Assembly (NCBI GenBank): GCA_050179755.1
Contig: JBFXEV010000001.1
Span: 677,940-741,939 of the forward strand
Length of the DNA stretch: 64,000 nt
Source of the DNA: Candidatus Babeliales bacterium
GTDB lineage: Bacteria > Babelota > Babeliae > Babelales > JBFXEV01
Direction of reading: 5' to 3'
The notes under the pieces were generated by a model. It made no database searches. It saw only the letters and a program-made list of their open reading frames with translations, and had not been told where the DNA came from. A program made the position numbers and the translations under genes. Shown here one piece after another: positions 4,030-53,287 of this stretch (position 1 is its first letter; every line of letters begins with the position of its first letter).

Positions 4030-4633
4030 TCTTCATTGAGCCCAGTGCTCAAAAATTAAGTAAGGGTTTTGGTTAGTGCGTAAAAGCATTAGTATCAGAA
4101 CCCTTAATTTTAGATCAAAAAACCTCTACAGCCGGTCTCAGGCTGGTTTCCTCCTTTGTTTATCCGGGCCTTTAGGGTCGGCAAACTACGAGAGGAAAAG
4201 TCCTCCTGCTCTCCTATACAATGTTGATTTTACCCTATAATCTCAGAGATTATTTACCTTTTAGCCCTCTGTAGACCCTTGAATTTTAACCTGGCTTTAT
4301 GTTACAATGAGAATATAGAATAGGCTCCGGTGCTTAATATAGGGTATTCTAAAAAAATTTACTCTGGCTGTATGAGTATTAGTTGCTTAATAAAGCACTC
4401 AGCATTCATAAAAAAGTTATGCGTTAATGGTAGTTAATGCAAGCATGCCATTTGGCGCTATTAAAGATATTTCCATGCAAGGTGATTTCTCATTGGTCGC
4501 TTATATGATAACGCCGATAGGCTAATGACAGAGAAAGTCTTTTTTGCTCTCAAAAGAAGAAGAAAAGTTTGAAAGAGCGTCAGCAGATTTTGATGTAGCA
4601 GTAAGTAAAGAGCACAACTAAAGGAGATTGTTA

Positions 4634-6202: not shown

Positions 6203-6328
6203 TAATTACCTGAGCTACAGGTAAAAATAGCTTATTTTACCCAAATTAATATTTTCTATTTGACATAATTTATACCTGTGATATACTGAATATACCCTAT
6301 ATTATTCAGGTTTAAATGGAGTATTATT

Positions 6329-7966
6329 ATGTTAAAGAAATTACTATTTTTTTCATTATTAACGGTCTCTTGCGCTTATGCCATGGAACCAGTGCCAGGT
6401 AAGCGGCAAAAACGTTATGATAATCCTCTAGAAGATGGTTCAAGTGAGGTTGACGCTTTGCCCAGATATTTATCAATTGAGCAGCCGGCATTCGTAAAAA
6501 GCGATGAGGACGTTGCTATTCAGACAGAGGATGACCAACACTTTATAGTTCCTATTCAACTTATTAAGTTATCTGAGACACTAAAAAATTTAATCGAAGA
6601 TGCTGGAATAGATCATCCAATTCCGCTACCTAATATTACTGCTTATACATGGCAGTTAACCCAATCATTGCTAGAGCGCGTGAGTGTTCTTTCGGGAAAT
6701 GATGCAGCCTTAGCGCCTCATGCAAAAAATTCTATTATAGCAACTTTACAAGATCTTAGATGCCAGGATCTTGTTGATTTTATTACAGCAGTTAATTACT
6801 TGGATATTCCAATTTTACTTAATATTGTGCTTGATGTTGTAAAGCAAGCAGATGTTTCTGTTATGACCCCGGAGCAGCTTATTCAGCTGCCAAAAGAAAT
6901 TGCCAATCCCATAGTTCTTGCGCATATTTTGCGGGCGTTAGCACCGTTACAAGGGCAGCAGCAACAAGTTATTAAGGGGTTTAAACGAGCGATTGCAGGA
7001 CTTTGTGTTAGTCCCAATGGTAACAAGATATATACCACGCATATCAATGGTATTGCGCGTATTTGGGATATGGCAACTGGTCAGCAGTTAAGTCAATTCG
7101 GGCATGCATCATGGGGGCGCCCAGGCTTGGGCTTATTGCCTGATGAAAGTGCTGCCCTATTAGGTTTTCATGCAAAGCCAATAATAATGTGGGATCTGGC
7201 AGCGAATAAGGTTTGTGAGAATGTTACCTTTGAGCGTCCTGATAATGCATTTTTAGGCGTACATACATTTCAAGTTACCCCTGATGGCACTAAAATTGTG
7301 TGCAAGGTGCACACGGGTTTCATCATTGTATGGGATCGTATCACTGGTAAAATTATTCATCGTATTTTAAGTGACGCAAGGCTTGTTTGTGTATCATCTG
7401 ATAGCAAGTATCTTGTTTTATGTGCGCTAAATGGTGCAATAACTCTACATGACATGGAATCAGGAGTACGCGTTGAGTCATTTCCTAAAATTGGAGATGG
7501 CAGTTGTGTTGATGGTGTTTTAATAACGCCAGATCAAAGCAAAATAATTCTAAATTATGCTGGTCGCGTATTATTTATAAAAGATTTTAAAACCGGTGCC
7601 GATCTTAACCGCATAGGCTATGATGAGCAAATTAGCGCAATATGCGTTACGCCAGATAGTTCTTATATATTGATTGGGCTTGTAAATGGTAACATACATA
7701 TGCATGAGCTTGCAACGGGTACATTAGTTGCCTGTTTTAAAGGTCATACAAAGGCAGTTTGTAATCTTAAAGTTGTGTCACAGGGTAGTCGTTTTGTTTC
7801 AGCATCTATGCTGGATAAGACCATGCGTATATGGAATCTAGATATATTTGCTCGCTTACGTGCATTATCTAAAGAGCAAGCAAAGTATATATGGACTTGC
7901 TTATATAAAAAAGAGATTGATAAGTGCCGTGTATATGTTCAAAATATTATAGTGCCACAAGACTAG
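6329..7966 (+). CDS. Leader + SKP1-like (POZ) domain + degenerate WD40 propeller fusion protein, paralog 2
   Basis: GGAG precedes the ATG. Leader is MLKKLLFFSLLTVSCAYA. SKP1-like block: VAIQTEDDQHFIVPIQLIKLSETLKNLIEDAG..PIPLPNI..ITAVNYLDIPILLNIVLDVVKQ. WD-like blades: GIARIWDM, PIIMWDL, GFIIVWDR, DKTMRIWNL. Confidence 0.82.
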   Translation: MLKKLLFFSLLTVSCAYAMEPVPGKRQKRYDNPLEDGSSEVDALPRYLSIEQPAFVKSDEDVAIQTEDDQHFIVPIQLIKLSETLKNLIEDAGIDHPIPLPNITAYTWQLTQSLLERVSVLSGNDAALAPHAKNSIIATLQDLRCQDLVDFITAVNYLDIPILLNIVLDVVKQADVSVMTPEQLIQLPKEIANPIVLAHILRALAPLQGQQQQVIKGFKRAIAGLCVSPNGNKIYTTHINGIARIWDMATGQQLSQFGHASWGRPGLGLLPDESAALLGFHAKPIIMWDLAANKVCENVTFERPDNAFLGVHTFQVTPDGTKIVCKVHTGFIIVWDRITGKIIHRILSDARLVCVSSDSKYLVLCALNGAITLHDMESGVRVESFPKIGDGSCVDGVLITPDQSKIILNYAGRVLFIKDFKTGADLNRIGYDEQISAICVTPDSSYILIGLVNGNIHMHELATGTLVACFKGHTKAVCNLKVVSQGSRFVSASMLDKTMRIWNLDIFARLRALSKEQAKYIWTCLYKKEIDKCRVYVQNIIVPQD

Positions 7967-20541: not shown

Positions 20542-21537
20542 CTATTTTTCTTGTGTTACCAATTTTGCAGGCTTATCTCTACGTAATCCTTTATATGTTG
20601 GATGGCGTAACTTATTATATTTGGTCCATTCAGTAAAACCAACTTCACACACTAACTGTGGTTTTACCCAATGCACGCCTTTAAGTGAATCGTCAAAGTT
20701 TACAAATGGATTTTTGTTTGTGGCTAATTTATTAAATTTATTTGTAAGATAGAGAAGTTCTTCTGTATCAAAGCCGGTGCCAATTTTACCAGCATAGTGT
20801 AATTTGCCGCGTTTATAATAGCCCACTAAAATTGCACCAAATCCAACGCGAGATCGTTGCGGGTCCGTGTAGCCGCCAATCACTAATTCTTGTTCTTGCA
20901 CACATTTGAATTTAAGCCAATCGGTAGAACGTTTGCTTTGATAGGTACTATTTTTATATTTTACTACCAATCCCTCCCATCCTTTTTTGCAGATAGTTCT
21001 AAAATAAGAGGCGCTTGCTTTGAGTTTGTGTTGTGTGTAACGTAATGGTTTTTCAAAAGTCATTACCTTACGCAATATTTGCTTACGCGTGATCAGTGGT
21101 AATTGAGTAAGGTCGTAGCCATCAAGATACATGATATCAAAGATATAATAATACACGGGAACGCGTGTTTTGGTGGCGGCTTCTTTGGTGCGGGCGTGCA
21201 TGCGCTGTTGCAAACGCGAGAAGTCAGAAAGGCCGTTTTTAAAAGCTACAATTTCTCCATCAAGAATCACGTTTGCTGGTATTTGTGCGATGGCATCTTG
21301 CACATCAGGGTAACTAATATTCATTGATAGGTGATTGCGTGATTCAAGAGCAACTTTTTTGCCTTTTTTTATGGCAACGCAACGCTCGCCATCAAGTTTG
21401 TGTTCGTAAAGCCAATCTGAGTCATAGAAGTAATTGTGGGTTAATGTTGCAAGCATTAAATTAAACGTGGAGGGTTGTGCTTTTTTTTTGAGTAATTTTT
21501 TTTGTTCTGGTGGTAAGTTTTCTAAAATGGGATTCAT
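20542..21537 (-). CDS. ATP-dependent DNA ligase (LigD/LigC-type ligase core: adenylation + OB)
   Basis: Motif I EHKLDGERC (catalytic Lys), then EGLVVK and WLKFK motifs. 331 aa. Confidence 0.85.
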   Translation of the reverse strand: MNPILENLPPEQKKLLKKKAQPSTFNLMLATLTHNYFYDSDWLYEHKLDGERCVAIKKGKKVALESRNHLSMNISYPDVQDAIAQIPANVILDGEIVAFKNGLSDFSRLQQRMHARTKEAATKTRVPVYYYIFDIMYLDGYDLTQLPLITRKQILRKVMTFEKPLRYTQHKLKASASYFRTICKKGWEGLVVKYKNSTYQSKRSTDWLKFKCVQEQELVIGGYTDPQRSRVGFGAILVGYYKRGKLHYAGKIGTGFDTEELLYLTNKFNKLATNKNPFVNFDDSLKGVHWVKPQLVCEVGFTEWTKYNKLRHPTYKGLRRDKPAKLVTQEK

Positions 21538-29522: not shown

Positions 29523-31043
29523 TTATATCTTGTGGTTAAAAAAAATTGCTCCACCTTTTAACCGATATATAAACAGTTGATAAAAAAGAGTTAAGGGGTC
29601 TTGTTCGTCGGGATTTTCAGCAAGCACCGATGCAAGAGGCTTTATTACTTTGAGCATGATGTTTAAATTCCGAATGTATAAGTGGGGATCAACGAGTGCT
29701 TGCATGTGCGCTGACCGCTCTAAGGCCTGTGCCATTTGGAGTGGTGTTTGCCCTTGCTCTGTTGCGGTGCAGAGTAATCGAGTAATATTTTGCAAATGTT
29801 TTTTTGCATAGTGCCATGCAAGAATTTGTGCAATTTTTTGCTGTTCATCTGGGCCAAATGATGTAACAAACGTACGCGCAGTTGCAAAGTTCATAAGAGG
29901 AGCCAGATCTTCACTTACATCTACAGGTATATTATATACAAGTGGTCCATTCCAAAGGAGCGTCAGAAGATCTTGGCGTAATAATGTGCTCGCCGTAAGA
30001 TGTGTTTCTAAGAATTTTTGAATGCATAATGTTCTGAGTGTTGGCACGTTGCTTTGGTTTAATGCCTCTAGAATAGAATCAAGAATTGCGATAGGGTCTT
30101 CATGTACCGTAGCTTCTGCAGGAGGTTGATCGTTATTATTGTTATTAGCCGCTGCAGGTAATTGATTGTTATTGTTATTGACATCAAAAGGTACTTGATT
30201 GTTGTTATTATTAATATTTTCAATAAGCTGGGGCAAGGGCGGCGCCAGGGGCTCGGGTGGCGCAGGAATTGGAATAATGGGGTCTATGCAATATAAAAGC
30301 AATGCAAGCAAAGAATAGAGTTTATTATTATCTATGGCAGTATGCAGCGCGGTGTGTTTATTAACATCAGGGCCCACCCATGCGCGATGTTCAAGTAAAT
30401 GACCAATACAAAATGGATGTTCTTGTGTTATACCAAATACTATGGGAGGATAACGTTCTTTATTATAAGTATCAATATCAATTCCCGCTTGGTAAAGTAA
30501 CAGCAAAAGTAACTGGTCAAATCCTCCTTCAGCGGCAACATGTAGTGTTGAATTTTTTGTTCTTGGGTGCATGGCTTGGGGATTTATTCCTTGCAAGAGC
30601 AGACGTTGGACTTTAAGCATATTATTTTGCCGTACTGCCGAAAGCATGGCAAAAACTTCTGCTCGTTTTTGCGCTTCTGTTTTTAGGGGCGGTGGCGCTT
30701 CATAGTGCACATATTGCCGAGGGCGGGTGGATACCCGGAAAAATTCTTTTTGATGACGAGAAAGTGCTGTTTCTTTTTCTGCTGCAGGCTCAGGTTCTTG
30801 TTGTACTTCTTTTTTGGTTTTGCCTTGTGCAAAATTGGCAAAGTGCTGTGTAAGTGGCGAAGGGTTTTCTTGCTCTGGCGATGGTGTTCGCGAAGGAGCG
30901 CCTTTGCGCACTTTCCCTTCTTTAAATTTTTTAAAATGAGTAAAAAAATCTTCGTCAGGCGGCTTGGGAGGCTCCATTGCACGCATTATGTGAAAACTGG
31001 TAAATAAGAGAGTAAGAATAGAGGAGCGTACACGGTGTGCCAT
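29523..31043 (-). CDS. Ankyrin-repeat protein with leader and poly-Asn triple repeat
   Basis: AAGGAA precedes ATG 31043 (MAHRVRSSILTLLFTSFHIMRA). ANK units (NSTLHVAAEGGFDQLLLLLLYQAGIDID; HTALHTAIDNNKLYSLLALLL). NNNNNQVPFDVNNNNNQLPAAANNNNND. Confidence 0.75.
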   Translation of the reverse strand: MAHRVRSSILTLLFTSFHIMRAMEPPKPPDEDFFTHFKKFKEGKVRKGAPSRTPSPEQENPSPLTQHFANFAQGKTKKEVQQEPEPAAEKETALSRHQKEFFRVSTRPRQYVHYEAPPPLKTEAQKRAEVFAMLSAVRQNNMLKVQRLLLQGINPQAMHPRTKNSTLHVAAEGGFDQLLLLLLYQAGIDIDTYNKERYPPIVFGITQEHPFCIGHLLEHRAWVGPDVNKHTALHTAIDNNKLYSLLALLLYCIDPIIPIPAPPEPLAPPLPQLIENINNNNNQVPFDVNNNNNQLPAAANNNNNDQPPAEATVHEDPIAILDSILEALNQSNVPTLRTLCIQKFLETHLTASTLLRQDLLTLLWNGPLVYNIPVDVSEDLAPLMNFATARTFVTSFGPDEQQKIAQILAWHYAKKHLQNITRLLCTATEQGQTPLQMAQALERSAHMQALVDPHLYIRNLNIMLKVIKPLASVLAENPDEQDPLTLFYQLFIYRLKGGAIFFNHKI

Positions 31044-31317
31044 GATATTCCTTTCTTTGTATAGCATACTGTTTCTTTAAATATATGCACAAGAGTTACC
31101 CCCTAAAGCTCTTTGTGGTACACTAAAACAACGATACTATAGATATTTGGCCCGCTTTTATATTTTCTAGCCTACGTCGGCCGACAGGCGATAATTTTCG
31201 CTCACCTTTCCCTCGATACAAATCGCTACGCGATTCACTTGGGATGAGCGGTGTATCGACTTTATTCGATGTAGCCTTGGTGAGGATGGAAAAACGAGCG
31301 GTCCCTTAGGAAACATT

Positions 31318-33765
31318 ATGAGTTACGACGTAAGCAGTATAGAAAAAAAATGGCAGCAACGGTGGCAAGAAGATCCTTATTGGTATGCAAAACCAGCAGG
31401 ATCAGGTAAAAAATACTATTGCTTGGATATGTTTCCGTATCCTTCGGGTTCGGGGCTGCACGTAGGCCATTGGCGCGGGTATGTACTTTCTGATGTGTAT
31501 GCTCGTATTAAAATGCTCGAGGGTTACAACGTGCTCCATCCTATGGGGTGGGATGCTTTTGGTTTGCCTGCAGAAAATGATGCTATAAAAAAAGGCATAC
31601 ACCCTAAAGAGGGTACCTATAAAAATATAAGCAATTTTAAAAAACAGCTAACGCAAATTGCTGCTATTTATGATTGGTCAAAAGAATTAAGCACTACTGA
31701 TCCAGAGTATTATAAATGGACGCAGTGGATTTTTTTGAAAATGTATGAGGCGGGTCTTGCCTACCAAGACAATATGCCTATTAATTGGTGCACGTCATGT
31801 TTGACTGGTCTTGCCAATGAAGAAGTGGTTGATGGCCATTGTGAACGGTGCGGTTCACACGTGATACAAAAAGAGGTGCGTCAATGGGTGTTACGCATTA
31901 CTGAATATGCAGAAAAATTACTTACTGGTCTTGATACGTTATCGTGGCCTGAAAAAGTAAAAACAATGCAGCGCAACTGGATTGGCAAATCTGAAGGTGT
32001 TGAAATTCATTTTACTGCAGAAGATGTTCATGGTAACACGTACTTGGTGCCGGTATATACTACGTGCCCAGAAACTATTTTTGGAGTTACCTTTTTGACC
32101 ATGGCACCTGATCACGAGCTTGTTGAAAAGTTAGTTGATCCTGCACATCAAGCAGCAGTAAATTCATATCAAGAAATTGTTTCTGGCATGTCACCATTTT
32201 CGCGTGAAACAGGCAAAGATAAAACGGGTGCGTTTATTGGTGCGTATGCAATCAATCCGTTAACGCACGAAAAATTACCTATTTTTATTTCAAGCTATGT
32301 TTTAAAAGAATATGGCACTGGTGTGGTGATGGGTGTTCCTGCGCATGACGAACGTGATTTTGATTTTGCACGAGAATATGATTTGCCAATTACACAAGTG
32401 ATTTCATCACCATTGGTGCAGTATGATGATGCAGGTGATTTGGCAGCATGTTATCCTGGTGATGGTGTGCTTATTAATTCTGGATGGTACTCAGATTTAC
32501 CTGCAAAAACAGAAGGCCGTGCAAAAATTAGCGCAGATTTAATTGCGCGTAATAGTGCATTTAAAAGAACGCACTACAAATTACGAGATTGGATTTTTTC
32601 CCGTCAACGCTATTGGGGAGAGCCTATACCGCTTCTACATTGTATGCGCTGTGGCGTGGTGCCGGTTCCTGAATCTGAATTACCGGTCAGGCTTCCAGAG
32701 GTTAAAGAATATCACCCTACAGGCACTGGTGAATCGCCACTTGCAGCAATTGAACATTGGGTAAACACCAAATGTCCTTCATGCGGTGGGCCTGCCAAAC
32801 GAGAAACAAATACTATGCCACAATGGGCAGGTTCGTGTTGGTATTATTTGCGTTATCCAAATCCAACATTAACTGATAAACCATTTGACACACAAGATAT
32901 GAACTATTGGTTACCGGTCGATTTATATGTGGGTGGTGTGGAGCATGCTATTTTACATTTACTTTATGCGCGTTTTTATACTAAAGTATTGTATGATTTA
33001 GGCTATTTGCCATTTAATGAACCGTTTAAACAATTGTTTAATCAAGGAATGGTTAATAAATTTTCTGAAATTTCTGGTGCTGTTGAAAAAATGTCTAAAT
33101 CAAAAGGTAACGTAGTTAATCCTGATGACATGGTGGCACAGTATGGTTCTGATGCATTACGCACGTATATCTTATTTATGGGGCCGCCTGAGCTTGATTG
33201 TGAATGGCAAGATACTGGTCTTGAAGGCGTTAAAAGATTTTTGCAGAAAGTTTGGAATTATTCGGTTGATAAAAGTACGTTACTTTTATCCAATGAAATG
33301 GAAGATTTACAAGTTACTAAACGCGTGCATCGATTTTTAAAAGAATATCAAGAACGCATTGCGCATTTTAAGCCAAACACGGCAGTTCCTGCTGCAATGG
33401 AATTATTTAACGATTTAACTAAACAAAAAGCACGCTTATCGCGCGATAGAATGGAAAAAATACTTGTCTCGCTTTCAGTGATGGTGCCACATATGGCAAG
33501 TGAATTGTTAGAAGTTGTTTTGCAAAAACGCTTACAAGATTGTGTATGGCCAACGTATGATCAAAAATTAGCGCAGCAAGATGAAGTAACCATGGCAGTG
33601 CAAGTTGATGGCAAAACGCGTGCAACGATTGTGGTAAGCCAAAATGTTACTAAAGATAGTGCTGTTGACCAAGCGCGTGATGCTGCAAGCAAATGGCTTG
33701 AGGGCCAGGTGGTTGATAAAGTGATTTTTGTGCCGGGCCGCATGATTAATTTTGTGATCAAGTGA
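31318..33765 (+). CDS. leuS: Leucyl-tRNA synthetase
   Basis: HIGH motif ([10 protein letters not shown]), KMSKS (EKMSKSKGN), CP1 editing-domain insertion, 815 aa. Confidence 0.95.
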
Positions 33766-34159: not shown

Positions 34160-34882
34160 ATGAACAAATATATTATACATATTCACATTTTTTTATTAAC
34201 TGTTTTTTGCTCAGCTTCTCCTGCTGTTGACCCAATAAAAGCATTGTTTGCCAATAGGCCCTGGGATTTTGTGGAGCAGATTTTTGTCATTGAGCCACAT
34301 GCTCAACTCAACGCTTTTAGCAGTAGCATGAAGCGCTGGATTCCTGCGCTTGCGGCTGGAACTGCAGCGGGCTATGGTACCTATAAATTAGCTGAACATG
34401 CGATTTTAGAACAGCAAGAAACATTTAAATGGAAAGAATTTACTCAAAAAGTTGGTTCGCCAATAGTTGGGGTTATTGGTTTATCTGCTGTGTATAGAGT
34501 TGCGCGTGCCTATACTGAGCGTAGTATTGATTTACAAGTATTAACGCAATTTATTGTAGAATGGGAAGAAAATAAACAATATACTCCTATTGAATTGCAT
34601 GAATCATGTGACGCATTATATCAATTATTTATGCAAGAAGGCGCAACTGCTCGTTATAATGAAGTTGCTCATAAAATAGCACCAATATTAAAGCGAACTA
34701 TTTATCAGCATTTTCCTAACAAATACCGCGAGCAACTACAAAGTTTGGAACGCGCTTATTTTTCCGACAGTATAATGTTTACGGTATTTCATTTTGAAGT
34801 TGATGTGGCGCGAGTTTTAGAAGTAACCGCTCGTATTGTGCGGGCATTTTTTGTTGATCCTGATCATCGAAAGAACAGATAA
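34160..34882 (+). CDS. Hypothetical membrane-associated protein
   Basis: Leader MNKYIIHIHIFLLTVFCSA plus two hydrophobic segments. No known domain. Confidence 0.5.
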   Translation: MNKYIIHIHIFLLTVFCSASPAVDPIKALFANRPWDFVEQIFVIEPHAQLNAFSSSMKRWIPALAAGTAAGYGTYKLAEHAILEQQETFKWKEFTQKVGSPIVGVIGLSAVYRVARAYTERSIDLQVLTQFIVEWEENKQYTPIELHESCDALYQLFMQEGATARYNEVAHKIAPILKRTIYQHFPNKYREQLQSLERAYFSDSIMFTVFHFEVDVARVLEVTARIVRAFFVDPDHRKNR

Positions 34883-34943: not shown

Positions 34944-35816
34944 ATGGAAAGAAAGGTAGGAAAGCACATAATCACCACCACCAATGAAGATGTAATTTGG
35001 TTTCCAAAATCAAAGATAACCAAGGGTGACGTGCTTAATTATTATGAAAAAATTGCACCAATTATGGTGCCACACATGTATGGTCATCCGGTAACAATGC
35101 TTCGGTATGTCGATGGCATACAAGGTGAAGGGTTTTATCACAAAGATGCGCCAACGTATTTTCCAAAATGGATCAAGCGATGTAATGTTGCAAAAAAAGA
35201 AGATGGCACAACAAGTTATGTGTTGTGTAATGAACCCGCAACGTTAGTTTATTTGGCACAACAAGCATGCCTTGTGCCACATCTCTGGCTGAGTAAATGT
35301 GATAAGCTTAATTCTCCTGATCTTTTAATTTTTGATTTAGATCCGGCAAAACAACCATTTTCATTTATTTGTGATGTTGCGTTACGATTAAAAGAAATCT
35401 TAGAAGCGAATAATTTGGTGCCATTTATAAAACTTACTGGCTCCCGCGGTTTACATGTTACCGTACCCATAAAACGTTTGTATACGTTTGATTTTGTTCG
35501 TGATTTTGCAAAGGAAGTTGGCCAAATTTTGGTTGAAGATGATCCTAAAAATCTTACCATGGAAATCAGAAAAGAAAAAAGAAAAGGGCGGTTATTTATT
35601 GATATTAATCGTAATGGATTTACCGCAACAGCTGTGGCGCCATATGCCATTCGTGCATATGAAAAGGCGCCGGTTGCAGCACCATTACTTTGGGATGAAG
35701 TGAAGAAAAAAGGTTTGACCGCTCAAAAATATAACATCTCAAATATATTCAAGCGGTTGTCGCGTATCGGCGATCCATGGCATGATATACAAAAGCATGC
35801 TACAAAGTTGCCGTAG
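34944..35816 (+). CDS. Stand-alone LigD-type polymerase/primase (PrimPol) domain protein
   Basis: ITKGDVLNYYEKIAPIMVPHMYGHPVTMLRYVDGIQGEGFYHKDAP, LIFDLDP, TGSRGLHV, AVAPYAIR. GGAGAG precedes the ATG. Confidence 0.85.
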   Translation: MERKVGKHIITTTNEDVIWFPKSKITKGDVLNYYEKIAPIMVPHMYGHPVTMLRYVDGIQGEGFYHKDAPTYFPKWIKRCNVAKKEDGTTSYVLCNEPATLVYLAQQACLVPHLWLSKCDKLNSPDLLIFDLDPAKQPFSFICDVALRLKEILEANNLVPFIKLTGSRGLHVTVPIKRLYTFDFVRDFAKEVGQILVEDDPKNLTMEIRKEKRKGRLFIDINRNGFTATAVAPYAIRAYEKAPVAAPLLWDEVKKKGLTAQKYNISNIFKRLSRIGDPWHDIQKHATKLP

Positions 35817-35885
35817 AATATCTGTTGTTATTATATAAATATGGTATACTTTAAAATATATGATTTAGCTGTCCAGGAGGCCCTT

Positions 35886-36098
35886 ATGAAACTACCATTA
35901 CCAGATTTAGTTCCTCAATATATCGTTGACAAGTCAGGCAAAAAAACTAGTGTTGTTATTGATATAGCAAGATTTGAGCATTTTTTAGATGAAGTTGAAG
36001 ATATGTATCTTGCTCTTCTTGCCAAAAAAACTCTTGAAGAAGATGACGAGTATGTTTCACATGAGGATGTGCGGCGCATGAGCGGAGATAAAGAGTAA
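35886..36098 (+). CDS. Phd/YefM-like type II antitoxin
   Basis: AGGAGG lies 5 nt before ATG 35886. QYIVDKSGKKTSVVIDIARFEHFLDEVEDMYLALLAKK. Ends 4 nt before the toxin gene. Confidence 0.75.
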   Translation: MKLPLPDLVPQYIVDKSGKKTSVVIDIARFEHFLDEVEDMYLALLAKKTLEEDDEYVSHEDVRRMSGDKE

Positions 36099-36102
36099 TT
36101 TC

Positions 36103-36375
36103 ATGCAGCATGCTAAAATGAAAAAAGTTATTTGGCGAGCAAAGGCTTCAAAGCAATTTTTGAAATTACCTCGTTATGATCGTGATGCAGTTATTGGAAA
36201 GATAGATCTCCTTGCTTCAGGCGCACTTAATTTAGACATTAAGAAGCTGAAGGGTTACGACTTTTATAGGCTACGAGTTGGTACTTACCGAGTTATATAT
36301 CAACTCATTGATGGGGAGTTTTGCATCGTGATTATAGGCGTTGGGCATCGAAAACAAGTATACGATGATTTATAA
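36103..36375 (+). CDS. relE: RelE/ParE-family type II toxin
   Basis: YRLRVGTYRVIYQLIDGEFCIVIIGVGHRKQVY is the canonical RelE/StbE C-terminal block. Confidence 0.85.
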   Translation: MQHAKMKKVIWRAKASKQFLKLPRYDRDAVIGKIDLLASGALNLDIKKLKGYDFYRLRVGTYRVIYQLIDGEFCIVIIGVGHRKQVYDDL

Positions 36376-36471
36376 TTTTTTATTGATTTTCTTACGTTCA
36401 AACTCATAAAATCTACATCAACCCACTCACATTTTTGTATAACTAGATGTAAGTGGGTTGATAAAAAATCC

Positions 36472-36792
36472 TTAACCTAACGGCCTTCCGCCTTTTAAAT
36501 TATGATCAGTTCTTTCAGGGTATTTTTCACCACGTTTTTTCTCTAATTTTTCAAGAGCCTTTTGGAGTGCATCTTCTGCAAAGGCAGTGAGTGTTAACCC
36601 CGGCTCCCAATAGACTGCATCTTTTACCTTATTAATGAGGTCGGTTGAAAGATGAATGGTTACTCGTTGCTTTGGTGAAACATCACTTGTATCATTTTTT
36701 GTTTTTTGCGCTGTGCTATTTTTTTTAGGCTCAATTTCTTGAGACAAGTAAGCCATTAACGGATTACTGCCAATTGTTTTTTTATTACTCAT
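36472..36792 (-). CDS. Small ribbon-helix-helix (ParG/CopG-like) protein, partner of ParA
   Basis: Basic disordered N-terminus, then an RHH pattern KQRVTIHLSTDLINKVKDAVYW..LTLTAFAEDALQKALEKL. Located directly downstream of parA. Confidence 0.65.
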   Translation of the reverse strand: MSNKKTIGSNPLMAYLSQEIEPKKNSTAQKTKNDTSDVSPKQRVTIHLSTDLINKVKDAVYWEPGLTLTAFAEDALQKALEKLEKKRGEKYPERTDHNLKGGRPLG

Positions 36793-36873
36793 GTAAACTC
36801 CTTGCTTATATAATTCCTTAATAATCCCGCGAATGTGGTATTTTGAAAAAATGACAAAGTTATTCGAGAGATT

Positions 36874-37650
36874 TCAAACAATAACTGTTTGTTTCTGTTC
36901 CTGCAAAATCACTTCACTTGCCAAACTTCTATAATCGAATGCACCATACGAGCGTGTATCATATTCAGTAATTGGTTTGGTAAATGAAGGCGCTTCAGAA
37001 AGCCGCACGTTCTCACGAATTGCCGTTTTATAAAGCATTCCCTTAAAGTTAGATTCAAGCGCAGATACTACTTCTTTTGCATGTTTGGTTCTACCATCAA
37101 CACGGCAGGGCACAATGCCTGCAATATGCAAATCTTTATTTAACCGTTCTTTAATTACATCAATAGTTTGCATTAATTGTACCAAGCCGCTCAATGCCAT
37201 TACGCGTGCTTCTACCGGAATAATCACTTCTTGCACGGCAGTGAGTGCATTGATGGTCAATATTCCTAAATTGGGTGGGCAATCGATAAGCACATAATCA
37301 TACTTGCCGGAGAGTTTTTTGAATTGCTGTTTTAAAATTGTTTCTGAGCCAACTTCATGCGCCAAGGCTTTATCAAGGCCAAAGAGCCAATTTGATGCAG
37401 GAACGGCATCAAGATATTCAACTTCTGTTCTGGTGATAATGGCATCAATGTGTACTTTGTTTACAAATACATCATAGAGGCTTTTACCATCACCGTCTGA
37501 TACGCCAAGCCACGAGCTTGTAGATCCTTGCGGATCAAGATCAATGAGTAATACGTTTCGTTTGTTTTCAGCAAGACCTGCTGCAAGATTTACGGCGGTA
37601 GTTGTTTTGCCACTGCCACCTTTTTGATTAATTACCGCAATTGTGCGCAT
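36874..37650 (-). CDS. parA: ParA/Soj-family partition ATPase
   Basis: Deviant Walker A VINQKGGSGKTTTAVNLA, then LLIDLDPQGS and YVLIDCPP. AGGAG precedes the ATG. Confidence 0.9.
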   Translation of the reverse strand: MRTIAVINQKGGSGKTTTAVNLAAGLAENKRNVLLIDLDPQGSTSSWLGVSDGDGKSLYDVFVNKVHIDAIITRTEVEYLDAVPASNWLFGLDKALAHEVGSETILKQQFKKLSGKYDYVLIDCPPNLGILTINALTAVQEVIIPVEARVMALSGLVQLMQTIDVIKERLNKDLHIAGIVPCRVDGRTKHAKEVVSALESNFKGMLYKTAIRENVRLSEAPSFTKPITEYDTRSYGAFDYRSLASEVILQEQKQTVIV

Positions 37651-37761
37651 TCACTACTCCTAGTATAAAGTTAATCATAACTGATATAACTTTATGATAA
37701 TAGGAGTGTTGTTGTCAATGATTACTATGCAGACAAGGTGTACGTTGTATTAGCGAGCAAC

Positions 37762-38682
37762 TTACTGTTCATGTTTTTCAAGTAATTGTGCAATATCAGT
37801 ATGGCCTGCTTCTTGTGCAAACATGCGCGGTGTTTGGCCTTTGTTATCGTTTGTGTAAACATCTGAGCCATGCGCCAAAAGTAATTCCACAATCTCTCTG
37901 TTTCCTCCATACGATGCATAATGGAGTGGAATTCTACCGAATTTATCTTTTATATTTACCTGAGCACCATGAGCTATAAGCAATTGTGGGGTTTCTAAAT
38001 TATATTGAATATGTAACGCCGTTCGGTTAAGGTCATCTTGAGCATTCACTTTCGCACCATGAGTCAGTAGTAGTTCAGTGATTTCTACATTTCTTGCACC
38101 ATGCAATGCTCTCCTGCCATCAACGTCTTTTGCGTTCACGTCAGCGCCATGGATCAATAGTAGTTTAACTATATCTTTCCAGAAGAGGTGGGGTGAATGA
38201 GTGTGTAAGGCTGTTTTGCCATCCATATCTTTTGCATTTACATCTGCGTTATGTGCTATCAAGAAAGCAGCCATTGGTGGAGTGAATGCGTAATGGAGTG
38301 CTGTTTTGCCACGATTATCTTTGGCATTTATATCTGCACCATGCTCTAGTAATAATTTAATGATGTTAGGGTGCCATGCCAGGTGAATTGCTGCATTTCC
38401 GTCATCATTTTTTATATTCACATTTGCACCGTGCGCTAATAATACTTTAATGAGTGATGTTTTCTCACTGCTACCCCATAATAATGAAGGATTCTTTAAA
38501 GCTTTTTTTAATAGTTCAGTTGCATCAGCACCAGCAGCTAACTTTTTCTTGATGATGAATATTTTTACTTTGTTAATGATAGTAACAATATAGTGCTGAA
38601 TGCGCGTCCATATATGTCTTGCAAAGATTATACCACCAACCAAAAGAATAAATCCTATCAAATAAATTAATGCGTTCTTCAT
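37762..38682 (-). CDS. Membrane-anchored ankyrin-repeat protein
   Basis: ATG 38682 has AAGGTG upstream; the track start is GTG. TM segment ALIYLIGFILLVGGIIFA. Six or more ANK units (GKTALHYA..LIAHNADVNAKD etc.). Confidence 0.85.
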   Translation of the reverse strand: MKNALIYLIGFILLVGGIIFARHIWTRIQHYIVTIINKVKIFIIKKKLAAGADATELLKKALKNPSLLWGSSEKTSLIKVLLAHGANVNIKNDDGNAAIHLAWHPNIIKLLLEHGADINAKDNRGKTALHYAFTPPMAAFLIAHNADVNAKDMDGKTALHTHSPHLFWKDIVKLLLIHGADVNAKDVDGRRALHGARNVEITELLLTHGAKVNAQDDLNRTALHIQYNLETPQLLIAHGAQVNIKDKFGRIPLHYASYGGNREIVELLLAHGSDVYTNDNKGQTPRMFAQEAGHTDIAQLLEKHEQ

Positions 38683-38884
38683 ATACACCTTGCATGAGAT
38701 ATTTGGTTTCTTATTTCTGTTCTTATCAAATACTTGGCATGTTATATTGGCAGAAGATGTATTTTGTTATTTGGTTATTGTTACCCGTATAGCTTGCCCT
38801 TTTTTAGTTTTTTTATCGCAAGCCCGTGAGTGAACATCGCTTGCGGTATGAATAAAGAGTTGTTGTATTCATGAGTTATTACGA

Positions 38885-39253
38885 TTAGCCAACAGGTGGC
38901 ATATAATTATCAACAAATACGCTAAAACCAAGCGGTGCAGCTGGCTTCAATAAGATGTCTATTCTGGTAATATTACAGTCTGGTATCAATATTAATTCAT
39001 TGCCATTGCCAATACCAGTTAACTTTTTCACCGTTAATTTGGTGGGGCATGGAAAATTTAGAATACCCGTAGGTTGATGAGGGTGAAATCGTTGCACTAA
39101 TGTTTGGCCATTTTGTGCTTCAAATTTTATTTCTATTATGCCATCAGTAAAGTTTCGAAAGTTTCCCGGTTGAATTACAAATGCTTGTATTCCAGAGGTA
39201 GCTATTAAGGTTAAAGCTAGTGTTAGTGCATAGATTATTTTATTATTTTTCAT
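38885..39253 (-). CDS. Family B small secreted two-Cys protein (B1)
   Basis: AAGGAAA precedes ATG 39253 (MKNNKIIYALTLALTLIATSGIQA). NFPCPTKLTVKKLTGIGNGNELILIPDCNITRIDI aligns to B2. Confidence 0.7.
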   Translation of the reverse strand: MKNNKIIYALTLALTLIATSGIQAFVIQPGNFRNFTDGIIEIKFEAQNGQTLVQRFHPHQPTGILNFPCPTKLTVKKLTGIGNGNELILIPDCNITRIDILLKPAAPLGFSVFVDNYMPPVG

Positions 39254-39272
39254 GATTTTCCTTTTTAAGGTA

Positions 39273-39300
39273 ATCATCCACGAGTTTCCTCGTGGATGAT
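39273..39300 (-). other. Perfect 12-bp stem / 4-nt loop hairpin between A1 and B1
   Basis: atcatccacgag-tttc-ctcgtggatgat. No U-tract follows on the minus strand. Confidence 0.6.
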
Positions 39301-39322
39301 TTAATTTACTATTCTCTTTTAC

Positions 39323-39976
39323 TTAATTTGCTGCGTTAAGATCACCTTTAAGAGTTGTTCCAAAGAAATTAGGTATCTGGTATGTTCCATCATTTTGAAC
39401 ATTGATTTTTAAGTTACCAAAATCTTTTTTGAGCGGTGTGTAAATAGTCAAAGTTTCAGTCCATTGTTTTGCACGAGGGCCTTTTGCATATACTTTGATA
39501 GCTGTATGTCTTTTTGGATCAGCTGCTTTTGCATCTGTGGCTTCTTGTGCTACTTTTGCAGGCGTTCCTTCGGGGAACGATTCATCAAGACTAAATACGT
39601 AAAATAATATTTTATACGGTTCGTTTGGATACGGCCCTTTAGAGAAAGTTATTGCATACAATTTTTTGCCAACATTGGGAACAGGTAATATAATTTCTTT
39701 ATTCTCAGTGATGGTGCGAAAATTTGTAATATTCTTTTGTGCTTCGAGAGTATTATAATCTTCTCTATCACCAGCAGAACCCATTACTTTTGAGGCTGAG
39801 TGTCCTTTTGCTGTTATAACTTGCTTGCAACCAGTTGCGCCTTCGCCGCAAATTATCTGAACTGATTCTATATCTTCTTTTTTAATCTCAACTTGGTTAC
39901 TGTCTTGTTTTGCAAAACTCATCTGTATGAGAGCCAAGCAAGCAAGAGCGGCAAGGGTTGTTATTTTATTGTTCAT
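39323..39976 (-). CDS. Family A secreted protein (A1)
   Basis: AAGGAG precedes ATG 39976 (MNNKITTLAALACLALIQMSFA). GKKLYAITFSKGPYPNEPYKILFYVFSLDESFPEG aligns with A2-A5. Confidence 0.7.
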   Translation of the reverse strand: MNNKITTLAALACLALIQMSFAKQDSNQVEIKKEDIESVQIICGEGATGCKQVITAKGHSASKVMGSAGDREDYNTLEAQKNITNFRTITENKEIILPVPNVGKKLYAITFSKGPYPNEPYKILFYVFSLDESFPEGTPAKVAQEATDAKAADPKRHTAIKVYAKGPRAKQWTETLTIYTPLKKDFGNLKINVQNDGTYQIPNFFGTTLKGDLNAAN

Positions 39977-40103
39977 GAGAACTCCTTTTTTATTTAGTGG
40001 CATATTGTATCATAGTGATAAAGATTATCTATGTACAGATAAGGCCTAATATCTATCTTCTATCCTCATTGTAACAAAATTTGCCTCTGGAAATCAAGGG
40101 TTT

Positions 40104-40532
40104 TTAAGGTATTGCTTGGTCAAATATAAGCCCATTGGGGCCGTCCCCTACAATAAGATTAATGGCGTTACAATTTTGCCTGGTCCAAAAAGAGCTTATT
40201 TTGCCAGCTCCCGTACCGGTAAGCTTTTGTATTTTGATTTTGCGTGGGCAAAATGGAAAATTGGTGGTTCCTGATTCACCCTTGCCATAATATAATATGG
40301 TAGATGCTTCAAAGCCTTGCTGTATTCTATCATTCGCTTCTTGTTTGATTCTATCTAGTATTATGTCTGCAAAGGGATTTAGGCTTGAAATGCCACCAAG
40401 TGCTTGCTGTGATAATGCATCAAGTGATAATTGTATTTGGCCGTCTGTATTATTTTGCACATTAAGCGTGAGTGCTTCTATGCGTGTATACAATGCATTA
40501 CTGATTGTAAGAATTAGTATTATTTTTTTCAT
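40104..40532 (-). CDS. Family B small secreted two-Cys protein (B2)
   Basis: Leader MKKIILILTISNALYTRIEA. LNVQNNTDGQIQLSL; NFPFCPRKIKIQKLTGTGAGKISSFWTRQNCNAINLIV. Confidence 0.7.
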   Translation of the reverse strand: MKKIILILTISNALYTRIEALTLNVQNNTDGQIQLSLDALSQQALGGISSLNPFADIILDRIKQEANDRIQQGFEASTILYYGKGESGTTNFPFCPRKIKIQKLTGTGAGKISSFWTRQNCNAINLIVGDGPNGLIFDQAIP

Positions 40533-40542
40533 ATCTATCCCC

Positions 40543-41160
40543 CTATGTTATGGTATTTAAATCGTAAGTAATTGGCGCAGGTCTTACTAAGTTACCTGTG
40601 GTATCAGTATATGGTTGTGGATAATAAAATAATTTTGCTTCAGAATCAACAGTAATAAGTGGTTTAAGTGCGGTAATAGGTTTTTCATTAAATGAAGTTA
40701 ACAGGTATGTCCATTGATTTTGCTCTGGCAATTTATAATAAACTTTTAACACGCTTTTAATTTCTGGATGTTTTGTTTTTATATCAGCAATTTCTTGTGA
40801 GAATTTTGCATCTGATAACTCTGCAGGGATGTTATTAATATTAAATGCATAAAATAACAATTTAATTTGTTGATTGGCATACTGTTTTTTGGTTGGGGTG
40901 AAAGCTATTATTTTTTGCCCCGAAGCTGGCAATGTTAATTCTGTTTCTTTTGTTGTTTTAATGGTACTTAAATTTTGTACATCAATGTTGATCTCTTTTG
41001 GTGAGAATTTATCGCTTGCACTTCCAATAGTCACATCGCCTGCCACGCAATCTCCTTGTGCTCCTACGCAAAAGAGTATTTCTTTGCGAACGGCAAAACA
41101 AAAAGAGCAATTAAATACGGTGATAATGATAATTGCAAAAGATTGAAAAGTGTGCTTCAT
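40543..41160 (-). CDS. Family A secreted protein (A2)
   Basis: AAGGAAA precedes the ATG. GQKIIAFTPTKKQYANQQIKLLFYAFNINNIPAE...LKVYYKLPEQNQWTYLLTSF. Confidence 0.7.
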   Translation of the reverse strand: MKHTFQSFAIIIITVFNCSFCFAVRKEILFCVGAQGDCVAGDVTIGSASDKFSPKEINIDVQNLSTIKTTKETELTLPASGQKIIAFTPTKKQYANQQIKLLFYAFNINNIPAELSDAKFSQEIADIKTKHPEIKSVLKVYYKLPEQNQWTYLLTSFNEKPITALKPLITVDSEAKLFYYPQPYTDTTGNLVRPAPITYDLNTIT

Positions 41161-41177
41161 AATTTTTCCTTATCCTA

Positions 41178-41543
41178 TTACGACATATTAATGCCTTGTG
41201 AAGGATCAAATGGTGCTGCTTTTAGTACAGAAGATTCGTTAAATTTAATTGAGAACATATCGGCTTCTTTTGTAATAACGATTTCATAATTATCACAATT
41301 ATTGCCTGCCCACATTTGCTTACCATTGATGGTTATTTGTTTTAAACAGTCTTGCTCTTGTCCAAAATTATAATCGCGCGTTGTCTGTGGGTCTACGTGA
41401 AGTACAGCAAAATTTATTGCTGATTTAATTAAGCCAACTTTAAGCGGTTCTTTGGTTTGATTGAGAATTTTTATATAGTTTGTTGCATATGCATCATATG
41501 CTATGCATAAGAATGCTAAGAATACTACAGCTAATTTCTTCAT
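41178..41543 (-). CDS. Family B small secreted two-Cys protein (B3)
   Basis: ATG 41543 (MKKLAVVFLAFLCIAYDAYA) has AAGGAA upstream. The track's longer N-terminus overlaps the predicted promoter. IKILNQTKEPLKVGL; DCLKQITINGKQMWAGNNCDNYEIVI. Confidence 0.7.
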   Translation of the reverse strand: MKKLAVVFLAFLCIAYDAYATNYIKILNQTKEPLKVGLIKSAINFAVLHVDPQTTRDYNFGQEQDCLKQITINGKQMWAGNNCDNYEIVITKEADMFSIKFNESSVLKAAPFDPSQGINMS

Positions 41544-41595
41544 GATCTGGATTCCTTGTAAAATACCTACAATAGAGGCTCTAATCTCCACTTTT

Positions 41596-52747: not shown

Positions 52748-53287
52748 TTATTTGTAATTGCTTTCAATCAAGGTAAACCCCTCAGTTTCTTCCTTCTCTT
52801 TAAGAAACCGTGCCAATTGTTCAAACTTACGCTTTTCTTTGGGGTTTTGTAAGCGCGATGCTATATCTTGTGCCCAAGCGCTTGCTGTTTTGCCTAAACT
52901 GTCTTTAAGGGTATAGTCTACGTGCGTCTTTGTATCTAAGTAGGTAATAACCGATTGTAGGCCAAAAAGTGCTGCCATCATAAGAGCAGTTTGCTGCGCA
53001 ACATTTTGAGCATTCACATTAATGCCTTTTAGGGGAATCAATTCTTTTATAAGCGATAGTGCTTGCTCTTCAGTAATAATATCAGTGCCAACCGCTTCAA
53101 GTACTGCGTGGAGTGGCGTGTTGCCTTTGCCGTCGCGCAATGTTGCTAAATTTTTTGATTGACTGATTAGCTTACGAGCCTGTGCAACATCTCCTTTATA
53201 AAGTGCTTGAAATAACTCAGTTGACCCACGTAGCATGTTTGGCGCGCAGATAATGCTTGTGCATATGATTATTGTTTGTAATTTCAT
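52748..53287 (-). CDS. Secreted ankyrin-repeat protein
   Basis: RDGKGNTPLHAVLEA; NVAQQTALMMAALFGLQSVITYLD. The start overlaps the upstream stop (ATGA). Confidence 0.7.
   Translation of the reverse strand: MKLQTIIICTSIICAPNMLRGSTELFQALYKGDVAQARKLISQSKNLATLRDGKGNTPLHAVLEAVGTDIITEEQALSLIKELIPLKGINVNAQNVAQQTALMMAALFGLQSVITYLDTKTHVDYTLKDSLGKTASAWAQDIASRLQNPKEKRKFEQLARFLKEKEETEGFTLIESNYK

Follow-up and report, generated by a model that had tools for sequence, protein, structure and literature searches.

The 64,000-nucleotide stretch of a metagenome-assembled genome of Candidatus Babeliales, phylum Dependentiae/TM6, analysed here (assembly GCA_050179755.1, contig JBFXEV010000001.1, positions 677,940 to 741,939; in the following the window) contains a parA gene that is followed, 81 nt downstream and on the same strand, by a gene for a protein of 106 residues. 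The two genes probably constitute a type-Ib-like, two-gene DNA partition operon that is vertically inherited in the chromosomes of Dependentiae. ParABS with a CTPase ParB is regarded as the near-universal machine for bacterial chromosome partition, and ribbon-helix-helix (RHH) adaptors are regarded as the solution of plasmids (type Ib) or of archaea (SegB). Here, throughout a phylum of obligately intracellular organisms whose published gene tables show no ParB, a chromosome-type ParA is stably paired with a predicted RHH adaptor. What appears to be new is the uncurated adaptor family, its pairing with a Soj-type ParA, its ParB-like activating peptide, and its chromosomal, lineage-wide occurrence in a phylum that appears to lack ParB. 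The importance hinges on two claims, the absence of ParB and the chromosome as cargo; the comparative pattern itself, as read from the sequences, is clean. The features of the operon are as follows.

36874-37650, minus strand: parA, Soj-type ParA ATPase of 258 aa (Pfam AAA_31, E=9e-56; deviant Walker A KGGSGKT).
36472-36792, minus strand: ParA partner of 106 aa, predicted centromere- or operator-binding RHH adaptor (weak, concordant RHH evidence; pCXC100-ParB-like).
36745-36783, minus strand: N-terminal peptide of the partner, codons 4-16, K-K-T-I-G-S-N-P-L-M-A-Y-L, predicted ParA-binding/ATPase-activating motif (alignment A1, see below).
36529-36672, minus strand: predicted RHH core of the partner, codons 41-88, with beta strand QRVTIHL, helix A, the G65-L-T67 turn and helix B.
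36475-36531, minus strand: C-terminal tail of the partner, codons 88-106, RGxxYPxR…LKGGRPL, with an AT-hook-like GRP core (alignments A1 and A2).
37689-37718, minus strand: probable parA promoter, -35 TTGACA, 18-nt spacer, -10 TAAAGT (10/12, joint-best consensus match in 33.7-38.9 kb).
37735-37746, no strand assigned: 12-bp palindrome AAGGTGTACGTT (pattern AASGT-NN-ACSTT) shortly upstream of the -35 box; candidate for an operator or for a subsite of a centromere.

The ATPase was compared with all PDB sequences. Its best solved homologues, matched over the full length, were ParA of M. xanthus (8RAY, 2e-60; identified as such from PMC12462528), Soj of H. pylori (6IUB, 6e-47) and Soj of T. thermophilus (1WCV, 1e-46), and weaker matches were obtained to McdA (6non, 2e-16), MinD (about 4e-16), SegA (7e-16), ParF (4dzz, 3e-11, partial) and pNOB8 ParA (3e-11). 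Identity to the chromosomal M. xanthus ParA is 43%. The KGGSGKT motif occupies residues 10-16 with both Walker A lysines kept, the Soj alignment begins at residue 2, and AAA_31 is matched in full, which fits a ParA of about 200-260 aa without an N-terminal helix-turn-helix (HTH). By these homologies the Soj-type identity of the ATPase is counted as shown. Functional residues were mapped through the alignment with M. xanthus ParA and the residue lists of PMC12462528. The pocket for the ParB peptide, V116/L150/L152/L155/L187/L192 in M. xanthus, corresponds to K94/L128/I130/I133/V165/L170 and is hydrophobic at five of six positions, while R238, which binds non-specific DNA (nsDNA), corresponds to R216 and D60 to D39. 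Because the pocket is mostly hydrophobic and R216 and D39 are kept, the protein looks like a working, nucleoid-binding Soj that is activated by a partner.

The 106-residue protein, of which an identical copy is recorded under locus tag AB7F19_04750 on a 1.53-Mb contig, gave no significant match to Pfam (E<=0.01), NCBIfam or PHROG. A word-indexed search retrieved 64 homologues, and all those with an organism name are from Dependentiae. A profile search at E<=1e-10 yielded 699 clusters at 90%, among which nearly all named entries are called 'hypothetical protein' and one JGI entry 'CopG/RHH'; an exhaustive profile search at E<=1e-3 extended the family to 1,305 clusters at 50% identity. Sequences were aligned within Dependentiae only (A1) and across phyla (A2), and a broader core-domain profile was built from 67 sequences (A4). 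In both A1 and A2 the protein consists of an N-terminal peptide, a variable low-complexity linker, the RHH core with the consensus KQRVTIHxSxDLIxRVKNAVYWEPGLTLxxFAExAL…LE, and an invariant tail, a layout which, as far as alignment can establish it, is counted as shown. In the tail, G88, R94, L99, G101, G102, R103 and P104 are invariant in A1, of which R94, L99, G102 and R103 remain so across phyla in A2, and this part aligns with the ...RGRPLG end of pCXC100 ParB. The linker ranges from about 10 to more than 150 low-complexity residues in proteins of 99-273 aa with both ends conserved (P0079, P0082, P0058, P0059), consistent with a flexible tether of variable reach.

Several lines of evidence bear on the fold. 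In an AlphaFold2 (AF2) model of the core, with a predicted local distance difference test (pLDDT) score of 89.5, an extended segment is followed by helices 11-23 and 29-48 connected by a G-x-T turn, which is the topology of an RHH monomer as modelled; residues 1-40 of the partner have low pLDDT. The compact Foldseek matches are RHH proteins, namely Sulfolobus SegB (7dv2, query TM-score (TMq) 0.51), ParD (7ycw, target TM-score (TMt) 0.71), ParD (8c24, TMt 0.70) and Reg576, with E>4; since the domain is too small and the model is a monomer, the E-values for both AF2 models are not significant and the comparison serves as a consistency check only. Sub-threshold Pfam matches include BrnA_antitoxin in 15 of 37 family members and RHH_1 in 5 of 37, besides RHH_5 and CopG_antitoxin, alongside scattered unrelated families. 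An hmmsearch of the PDB with the A4 profile found 3NO7 with E=0.0094, over helix B and the tail only. What this entry holds is the RHH domain with which ParB of plasmid pCXC100, a type Ib system, binds DNA (PMC3074162). The narrower A1 profile did not reach 3NO7, and its sole match among PDB sequences was NDUFA13, which was rejected as spurious. Using hhalign, a ParB homologue from the Pseudarthrobacter plasmid pACHL01 was aligned in register through strand, both helices and tail over 64 columns, with 23% identity, P=3.7e-4 and a probability of 36%, and tblastn with the window protein did not retrieve the actinobacterial pCXC100-type plasmids. These lines are each weak, but all agree, and in sequence and model the 106-residue protein is best described as an RHH protein of the centromere-binding type, distantly related to pCXC100 ParB.

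The N-terminal peptide has the consensus K-K-T-I-G-x-N-P-L-x-x-Y-L in A1, with T6, L12 and Y15 invariant. In 90 loci it was scored whether a ParA gene lies directly upstream of the family member and whether the peptide is present. The peptide was found in 61 of 61 loci with ParA directly upstream and in 0 of 28 loci without an adjacent ParA; in the 90th locus the motif is present, and ParA adjacency could not be scored because the sequence ends 148 nt upstream of the gene. Variant forms of the peptide are RRTIGTNPLDAVI, ALGSDPLDALV and KTINANPLTDYL. In every Dependentiae locus examined, the partner gene lies directly downstream of parA amid differing neighbourhoods, and four of four Babeliales ParAs that were picked from a ParA search alone (contigs of 32-692 kb) have a family member 10-50 nt downstream. 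The gene order, the conservation of the pair and the strict association between peptide and ParA adjacency are counted as shown. This strict co-occurrence is, among the computational evidence, the strongest argument that ParA is contacted through the peptide, which is also predicted to stimulate the ATPase of ParA. The spacing of the hydrophobic residues I7, L12, Y15 and L16 resembles, with one extra residue, that of L11, L15, L18 and I19 within the motif by which M. xanthus ParB binds ParA (PMC12462528).

Family members that are not linked to ParA consist of the RHH core and the GGRP tail without the N-terminal peptide, and adjoin DNA methylases, an integrase or unrelated genes. In Chromohalobacter and Microbulbifer (loci L071 and L072) such a member directly precedes an N6/N4 DNA methylase gene, and at locus L052 it follows an integrase. 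At these three loci the peptide-less module may be a controller-type regulator.

To assess the distribution of the family, 185,579 species genomes were scanned with the core pattern [KR][ND]AV[YF]W[ETS]PG. The scan undercounts, and its 131 hits are not usable as an estimate of prevalence because KNVV[YF]WEPG variants, present at two of the four loci sampled through ParA, escape the pattern. Hits occurred in Dependentiae, Bipolaricaulota/Acetothermia, Fraserbacteria, Chlamydiota, Planctomycetota, Acidobacteriota, Nitrospirota, Myxococcota, Cardinium and a few Gammaproteobacteria. In a neighbour-joining (NJ) tree, built without support values and with three outgroups only, the partner-paired ParAs make up a clade of their own, to which the three canonical Soj references do not belong. 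The paired ParAs are 48-92% identical to the window ParA and the Soj references 40-43%, the exceptions being two linked ParAs at about 41% identity, one from Beggiatoa and one from another assembly. All Dependentiae ParAs fall into one sub-clade, which includes the copy on a 12-kb contig with integrase, primase and helicase genes, apart from the ParA of one bin labelled 'Dependentiae', which groups with Cardinium and Parachlamydiaceae. Babela massiliensis was not named among the best 120 matches of the ParA search or of the partner search.

In the PLSDB collection the partner was found on 1 of 72,556 plasmids, the Cardinium plasmid pCher, where the pair lies beside a VapE-domain gene, and no match was found in a collection of phage records. 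On Dependentiae chromosomes the neighbourhood of the pair varies between alaS/nusA/infB, gdhA, gatB, znuABC and ankyrin genes. The picture drawn from these sequences is that of a mobile two-gene cassette which was fixed early in Dependentiae and has been vertically inherited since then, and 'domesticated', a word used in an initial annotation of this DNA, is a fair description of the pair.

Three groups of loci deserve separate description. In one Dependentiae sub-clade (L005, L094, L095) a PGA_cap gene, of the kind for poly-gamma-glutamate capsule synthesis, and behind it one for an SDF-family transporter invariably come after the par pair, a block that is absent from the window. The 12.3-kb metagenome contig L007 carries a diverged ParA-RHH pair, with a long linker in the partner, which is 45% identical to the window protein, together with genes for a tyrosine integrase, a DnaG-Zn-ribbon primase, a DnaB-family helicase and a ParE-like toxin; the contig probably represents a plasmid or an integrative element from Dependentiae-like bacteria. 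Among the loci from Bipolaricaulota/Acetothermia and Fraserbacteria (L028-L047, L064), the cassette is present, with the peptide RRTIGTNPLDAVI, in at least nine species-level genomes of Bipolaricaulota. The Bipolaricaulota ParAs are very similar and 60-63% identical to the window ParA, and some of the contigs measure 139-370 kb (L033, L034). This phylum may use the ParA-RHH pair chromosomally too.

The DNA around the operon was searched for sites to which the partner might bind. Both hexamers of the probable parA promoter are conserved in the nearest relative found, the Babeliales chromosome OY970310.1 (L012). The palindrome upstream of it emerged from visual comparison and k-mer statistics only. 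In 25 Dependentiae loci the density of the AASGT-NN-ACSTT pattern is 1.22 per kb in non-coding DNA near the operon and 0.16 per kb elsewhere, an enrichment of about 8-fold that is inflated because the pattern was picked after inspection of the same regions. In an unbiased 7-mer test, the overlapping words ACATAAA, AGCATAA, ATAAAGG and CATAAAG passed Bonferroni correction, and they tile to GCATAAAGGTA[AC]ACCTTT. The motif is absent from some sub-clades, and two loci related to L007 (L008 and L027) have two copies, one at the parA promoter and one in the stretch that separates parA from the partner gene. As far as sequence comparison goes, the palindrome fits an operator. Repeat searches in the par regions of four relatives found no shared repeat, and the parS sequence TGTTNCACGTGAAACA has no match with up to two mismatches in the 64-kb window. 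A 22-nt imperfect inverted repeat at 37652-37708, upstream of the parA ATG, was considered as an operator and rejected; it is not conserved in L012 and in part reflects complementarity between ribosome-binding site (RBS) and anti-RBS. The 81-nt spacer between parA and the partner gene (36793-36873) is 80% identical to L012 5918-6000, and its conserved block TCGAATA..TTTGTCATT.TTT..AAAAT.CCA could be an internal promoter or a binding site.

The operon was also compared with known partition systems. The pCXC100 system of Leifsonia xyli (3NO7) likewise has the order parA then parB, and its ParB is likewise small and has the layout predicted for the partner: a disordered N-terminal half, a low-complexity linker, a C-terminal RHH domain, an additional loop at the C-terminus and ...RGRPL as its last residues. 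In the pACHL01 homologue, too, there is a peptide near the N-terminus ('...PAGLDAL...'), together with a PQ-repeat linker and the end …PRGRPLET. However, the similarity of pCXC100 ParB to the partner is in register but marginal (E ~0.01), the cognate ParA is just 31% identical to the window ParA, and the pCXC100 centromere consists of nine 9-bp direct repeats, of which no such array is present at the window operon; moreover, pCXC100 is a plasmid, whereas the window pair is chromosomal and lineage-wide. With chromosomal ParABS the operon shares the type of ParA, as judged from the full-length alignment, the deviant Walker A, the DNA-binding Arg and the largely conserved pocket. The partner N-peptide is similar to ParB's motif for binding ParA (LG-R-GL-xALI), although the Arg/Lys in the middle is missing and the first two hydrophobic positions are one residue further apart, and the partner, unlike ParB/Spo0J, is devoid of a ParB/Srx CTPase domain, an HTH and a ParB dimerisation domain. 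Archaeal SegAB of Sulfolobus likewise combines a chromosomal ParA-family ATPase with a downstream, site-specific RHH protein of about 100 aa with a disordered N-terminus. Among the Foldseek matches of the core model SegB ranks first, yet it has no detectable sequence homology to the partner, and SegA is a distant relative of the window ParA (7e-16). SegAB is archaeal, and the relation is best seen as architectural analogy and not as family membership.

The plan proposed for the pair, a small Walker-type ATPase and an RHH dimer with an ATPase-activating flexible N-tail and operon autoregulation, is found in ParF/ParG of TP228 and delta/omega of pSM19035, but these are plasmid-borne, their N-tails are unrelated in sequence and ParF is remote (3e-11). 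The ParG family (PF09274) is not among the Pfam families listed for 37 partner-family members. From McdA/McdB the pair differs in that its ParA is far nearer to chromosomal ParA (2e-60 vs 2e-16), the partner core is structured in the model and no cargo operon is adjacent. A true family member is WP_014935027 on pCher of Cardinium cEper1, which is 40% identical over the full length, carries the N-peptide RQTIGENPLDSLI and lies directly downstream of a ParA of the same subfamily. In this case, the replicon is a 57.8-kb conjugative plasmid with a VapE-domain gene and insertion sequence (IS) elements beside the pair, and both genes are uncharacterised, the partner being annotated as hypothetical. 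By analogy, the pair appears to work like type Ib systems and SegAB, with an ATPase from the chromosomal Soj group, and on sequence grounds the adaptor can be placed in the pCXC100 ParB family as a distant member at most, and is neither ParG nor ParB/Spo0J nor McdAB-like.

The initial annotation had proposed a ParA with a deviant Walker A and a small downstream RHH partner, and both were recovered, the former through KGGSGKT and AAA_31, the latter through the several weak but concordant lines described above. Its characterisation of the partner as type Ib and ParG-like rather than a chromosomal ParB held for the type Ib architecture and the distinction from ParB/Spo0J, but not for ParG, as the protein resembles pCXC100 ParB. 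In the comparison with ParF and McdA that it had recommended, ParA turned out to be like neither, the best matches being to chromosomal Soj, and nothing points to its alternative that the pair was repurposed to position a non-DNA cargo in the manner of McdA/McdB, the neighbouring genes varying by genome.

Under the scheme proposed for the operon, the partner would dimerise via its RHH core and bind specific DNA, with the AASGT-NN-ACSTT palindrome at the parA promoter as candidate site, and further contacts, with the minor groove or within the dimer, would come from the invariant GGRP tail at the C-terminus. Contact of the peptide with ParA would stimulate ATP hydrolysis, as the N-terminal motif of ParB does, and the bound DNA would be moved or equi-positioned along a ParA gradient; the same DNA binding would autoregulate the operon. 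The most likely cargo would be the chromosome itself, because the published COG tables list one Soj and no ParB/Spo0J for Babela. In these tables, COG1192 (Soj) is represented once in Babela and not in TM6SC1, and COG1475 (Spo0J/ParB) in neither (Pagnier et al. 2015, Additional file 11, PMC4378268); Smc is also missing in Babela (PMC4378268). In the literature on Dependentiae, nothing about ParB, Soj or partitioning was found in main texts, and this supplementary COG table alone was informative (PMC4378268). Within the window, no ParB domain (ParBc) was found among the open reading frames (ORFs) of at least 150 aa. The inferred parts of the scheme are the binding to DNA and its site, the stimulation of the ATPase and the nature of the cargo. 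The partner may stand in for the usual ParB, and the chances that the conserved par pair is the sole chromosome partition system are roughly even.

A more far-reaching proposal is put forward tentatively, as somewhat doubtful in its full extent. Dependentiae, and possibly Bipolaricaulota, would have dispensed with the CTP-dependent ParB clamp and would segregate or equi-position their chromosomes by a Soj-type ParA and an RHH adaptor of about 100 aa with a ParB-like activating peptide, as a bacterial counterpart of archaeal SegAB, the peptide being a portable module shared by ParB and type Ib adaptors. Babela-like organisms grow as large multinucleoid bodies before splitting, and such a system could distribute many chromosome copies in them. 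If the pairing of a chromosome-type ParA with an RHH adaptor in a phylum without ParB holds true, the phylum would provide a natural experiment on which functions of ParB (clamp, spreading, CTP switch) are dispensable, the ParA-activating peptide would prove a transferable module, and a name would be given to a large protein family of more than 1,300 clusters at 50% identity that no curated database covers.

A number of observations weigh against the partition operon as proposed. In ParA, one pocket residue is altered, from V116 in M. xanthus to K94, and on the side of the partner the N-peptide is without the central Arg/Lys of the ParB motif, its basic residues preceding the motif. Taken singly, the lines that link the partner to RHH proteins and pCXC100 ParB are weak (E ~0.01, hhalign probability of 36%, E>4 in Foldseek), and the partner family is known from sequence and prediction alone. 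The palindrome at 37735-37746 is the sole perfect copy in the window and is degenerate in L012, and no iteron or tandem repeat array, as expected of a multi-repeat centromere, was found near the operon. The genome scan gives no fraction of Dependentiae species that bear the pair, and the evidence on ParB comprises 64 kb of a 1.53-Mb genome and a 2015 COG table of two other Dependentiae. Finally, the same cassette resides on the Cardinium plasmid pCher and on the L007 element with its integrase, primase and helicase, so a plasmid or element as cargo is possible in principle.

Part of these observations would suit other explanations of the pair. One is an accessory, plasmid-derived ParA/RHH system that exists beside a canonical chromosomal ParABS and either segregates an unseen extrachromosomal replicon or positions a protein cargo in the McdAB manner. 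Such a role would agree with the sporadic occurrence of the family in phyla with large genomes (Acidobacteriota, Myxococcota, Planctomycetota) and with a ParB search that in this genome covers the 64-kb window only; orphan ParA-like ATPases with small disordered partners are also known for cargo positioning. Yet Babela has a single COG1192 protein and no COG1475 (PMC4378268), cargo genes are not consistently adjacent and the neighbours differ between genomes, the partner, in contrast to McdB, has a predicted DNA-binding RHH fold, and ParA, in which the Arg for nsDNA binding and the two Walker A lysines are retained, is similar to McdA at only 2e-16, which makes an accessory system unlikely. 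Still less probable, and indeed quite improbable, is a function of the 106-residue protein as transcriptional repressor of parA only, with ParA acting alone or with another partner. The single promoter palindrome without a repeat array would suit a repressor, and RHH and GGRP proteins without the N-peptide adjoin methylases and integrases like ordinary regulators. A pure repressor, however, needs no N-peptide, whereas this peptide is the most conserved part outside the RHH core, is confined to ParA-linked members (61/61 vs 0/28) and has a hydrophobic pattern that mimics ParB's motif for binding ParA; type Ib systems, moreover, use one protein as both repressor and adaptor (PMC3074162). A partition operon is the preferred reading of the pair. 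Its neighbours are the following.

34944-35816, plus strand: stand-alone LigD primase-polymerase (PolDom) of 290 aa (PF21686, E=5e-85, residues 1-254/254; TIGR02778, 238.6 vs cutoff 214.7).
35841-36098, plus strand: RelB-like antitoxin of 85 aa (PF18506, E=2e-8).
36103-36375, plus strand: ParE/RelE-family toxin (RelE-StbE) of 90 aa (PF05016, E=2e-11; TIGR02385 above cutoff; PHROG RelE-like toxin, 4e-18).
36417-36462, no strand assigned: hairpin with 16-nt arms (inverted repeat I5, 94% complementary), probable bidirectional terminator, on which the small gene and the parE toxin gene converge.
34160-34882, plus strand: 240-aa protein hyp240 with hydrophobic N-terminus, neighbour of LigD-Pol; the L012 orthologue is 49% identical and in the same position.
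31318-33765: leuS flank.
37762-38688: flank encoding an ankyrin protein.

All six ORFs of the initial annotation were found at their coordinates in an ORF check of the window, and the flanks are leuS and an ankyrin protein gene as it had said. The LigD-type primase-polymerase was also correctly named, with PF21686 matched over its full length and TIGR02778 above cutoff, and it is stand-alone because ligase and nuclease domains are absent from the 290-aa protein. Of the supposed Phd/YefM-RelE pair, the toxin was upheld by PF05016 and TIGR02385, but the label of the antitoxin had to be changed to RelB-like; PF18506 is the sole Pfam family that the 85-aa protein matches, and Phd/YefM (PF02604) is ruled out. 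The antitoxin gene lies directly upstream of the toxin gene with a gap of 4 nt, as in the type II RelBE/ParDE superfamily. The hyp240 protein has no match in Pfam, NCBIfam or PHROG, and the terminator hairpin is conserved in L012.

From the proximity of these modules it had been suggested that the cluster is an integrated plasmid remnant. A recently integrated plasmid or integrative-element remnant at 34.9-37.7 kb, carrying repair, addiction and partition modules, would account for three gene types (LigD-Pol, toxin-antitoxin (TA), ParA/RHH) that are all common on plasmids. The ParA/RHH cassette of pCher and that of the 12-kb contig L007 with its integrase, DnaG-type primase and DnaB helicase, where a ParE-like toxin is likewise near the pair, would also agree with it. 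The composition, however, is ordinary: GC is 0.36-0.40 across the region and 0.33-0.43 in the whole window (1-kb windows), and in GC, GC at third codon positions (GC3) and codon usage each of the six genes scores no further than about 2 standard deviations from the 39 other window genes, so that the compositional shift that was to be looked for around the cluster was not detected. Likewise, no convincing att-like direct repeats flank it, no tRNA genes and no Rfam matches were found, and no integrase or replication gene is present among the window ORFs of at least 150 aa. In L012 the order ParA-small-(convergent) LigD-Pol-hyp240-leuS is identical, with identities of 92% for ParA, 75% for the small protein, 78% for LigD-Pol and 82% for LeuS, but the RelB/ParE pair is missing and the small gene is just about 90 bp away from LigD-Pol. 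In the more distant L009 (ParA 75%), which also lacks RelB/ParE, LigD-Pol adjoins leuS and the par pair is 7 kb away.

Published gene content points in the same direction, as the LigD-type primase COG3285 is present in both Babela massiliensis and TM6SC1 and RelB (COG3077) in neither (Pagnier et al. 2015, PMC4378268). In addition, the Dependentiae ParAs are monophyletic in the NJ tree, and the partner is on just 1 of 72,556 PLSDB plasmids. Because synteny is conserved in L012, an outcome that the initial annotation itself had named as counting against its proposal, and because no compositional anomaly is seen, the remnant is largely refuted and an extremely unlikely explanation. From the synteny in L012 and L009, the composition and the COG tables, the three modules are therefore not one plasmid-like unit. 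By these comparisons, LigD-Pol, linked to leuS, is a repair gene typical of the lineage, the RelB/ParE pair is a separate, recent local insertion of about 560 bp outside the par module, and the par pair is a separate conserved module. For annotation, this serves as a warning that adjacency of LigD-Pol, TA and ParA should not be read as a plasmid scar.

Outside the cluster the window is ordinary chromosome, with genes for a DbpA-type helicase, UvrB, RNase HII, transaldolase, leuS and numerous ankyrin/WD40 effector-like proteins. None of the window ORFs of 150 aa or more has a Ku domain. At 20542-21537 on the minus strand, 13 kb from LigD-Pol, lies the gene for a stand-alone ATP-dependent DNA ligase of 331 aa (DNA_ligase_A_M and DNA_ligase_A_C), and since it stands apart the LigD functions appear to be split over separate genes; ATP-dependent ligases are present in both Babela massiliensis and TM6SC1 (PMC4378268). 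At 38885-41591 on the minus strand, five small genes (130, 226, 142, 205 and 137 aa) form a tandem array whose products have no Pfam match at the thresholds applied and hydrophobic N-termini in four of five cases. The 205- and 226-aa proteins are paralogues with about 37% identity, and in L012 the family is present in several copies upstream of parA. The array looks like a lineage-specific, expanded family of secreted proteins. WD40 and ankyrin repeat proteins are typical host-interaction genes of Dependentiae, and eukaryote-like repeat proteins of these kinds, two WD40 beta-propeller proteins and several ankyrin proteins, are encoded at 4628-7966 (plus strand), 29523-31067 (minus strand), 18351-19196 and 52748-53287. 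One of the two WD40 beta-propeller proteins carries a Skp1/POZ domain, and a 514-aa ankyrin protein contains poly-Asn tracts (NNNNNQ repeated).

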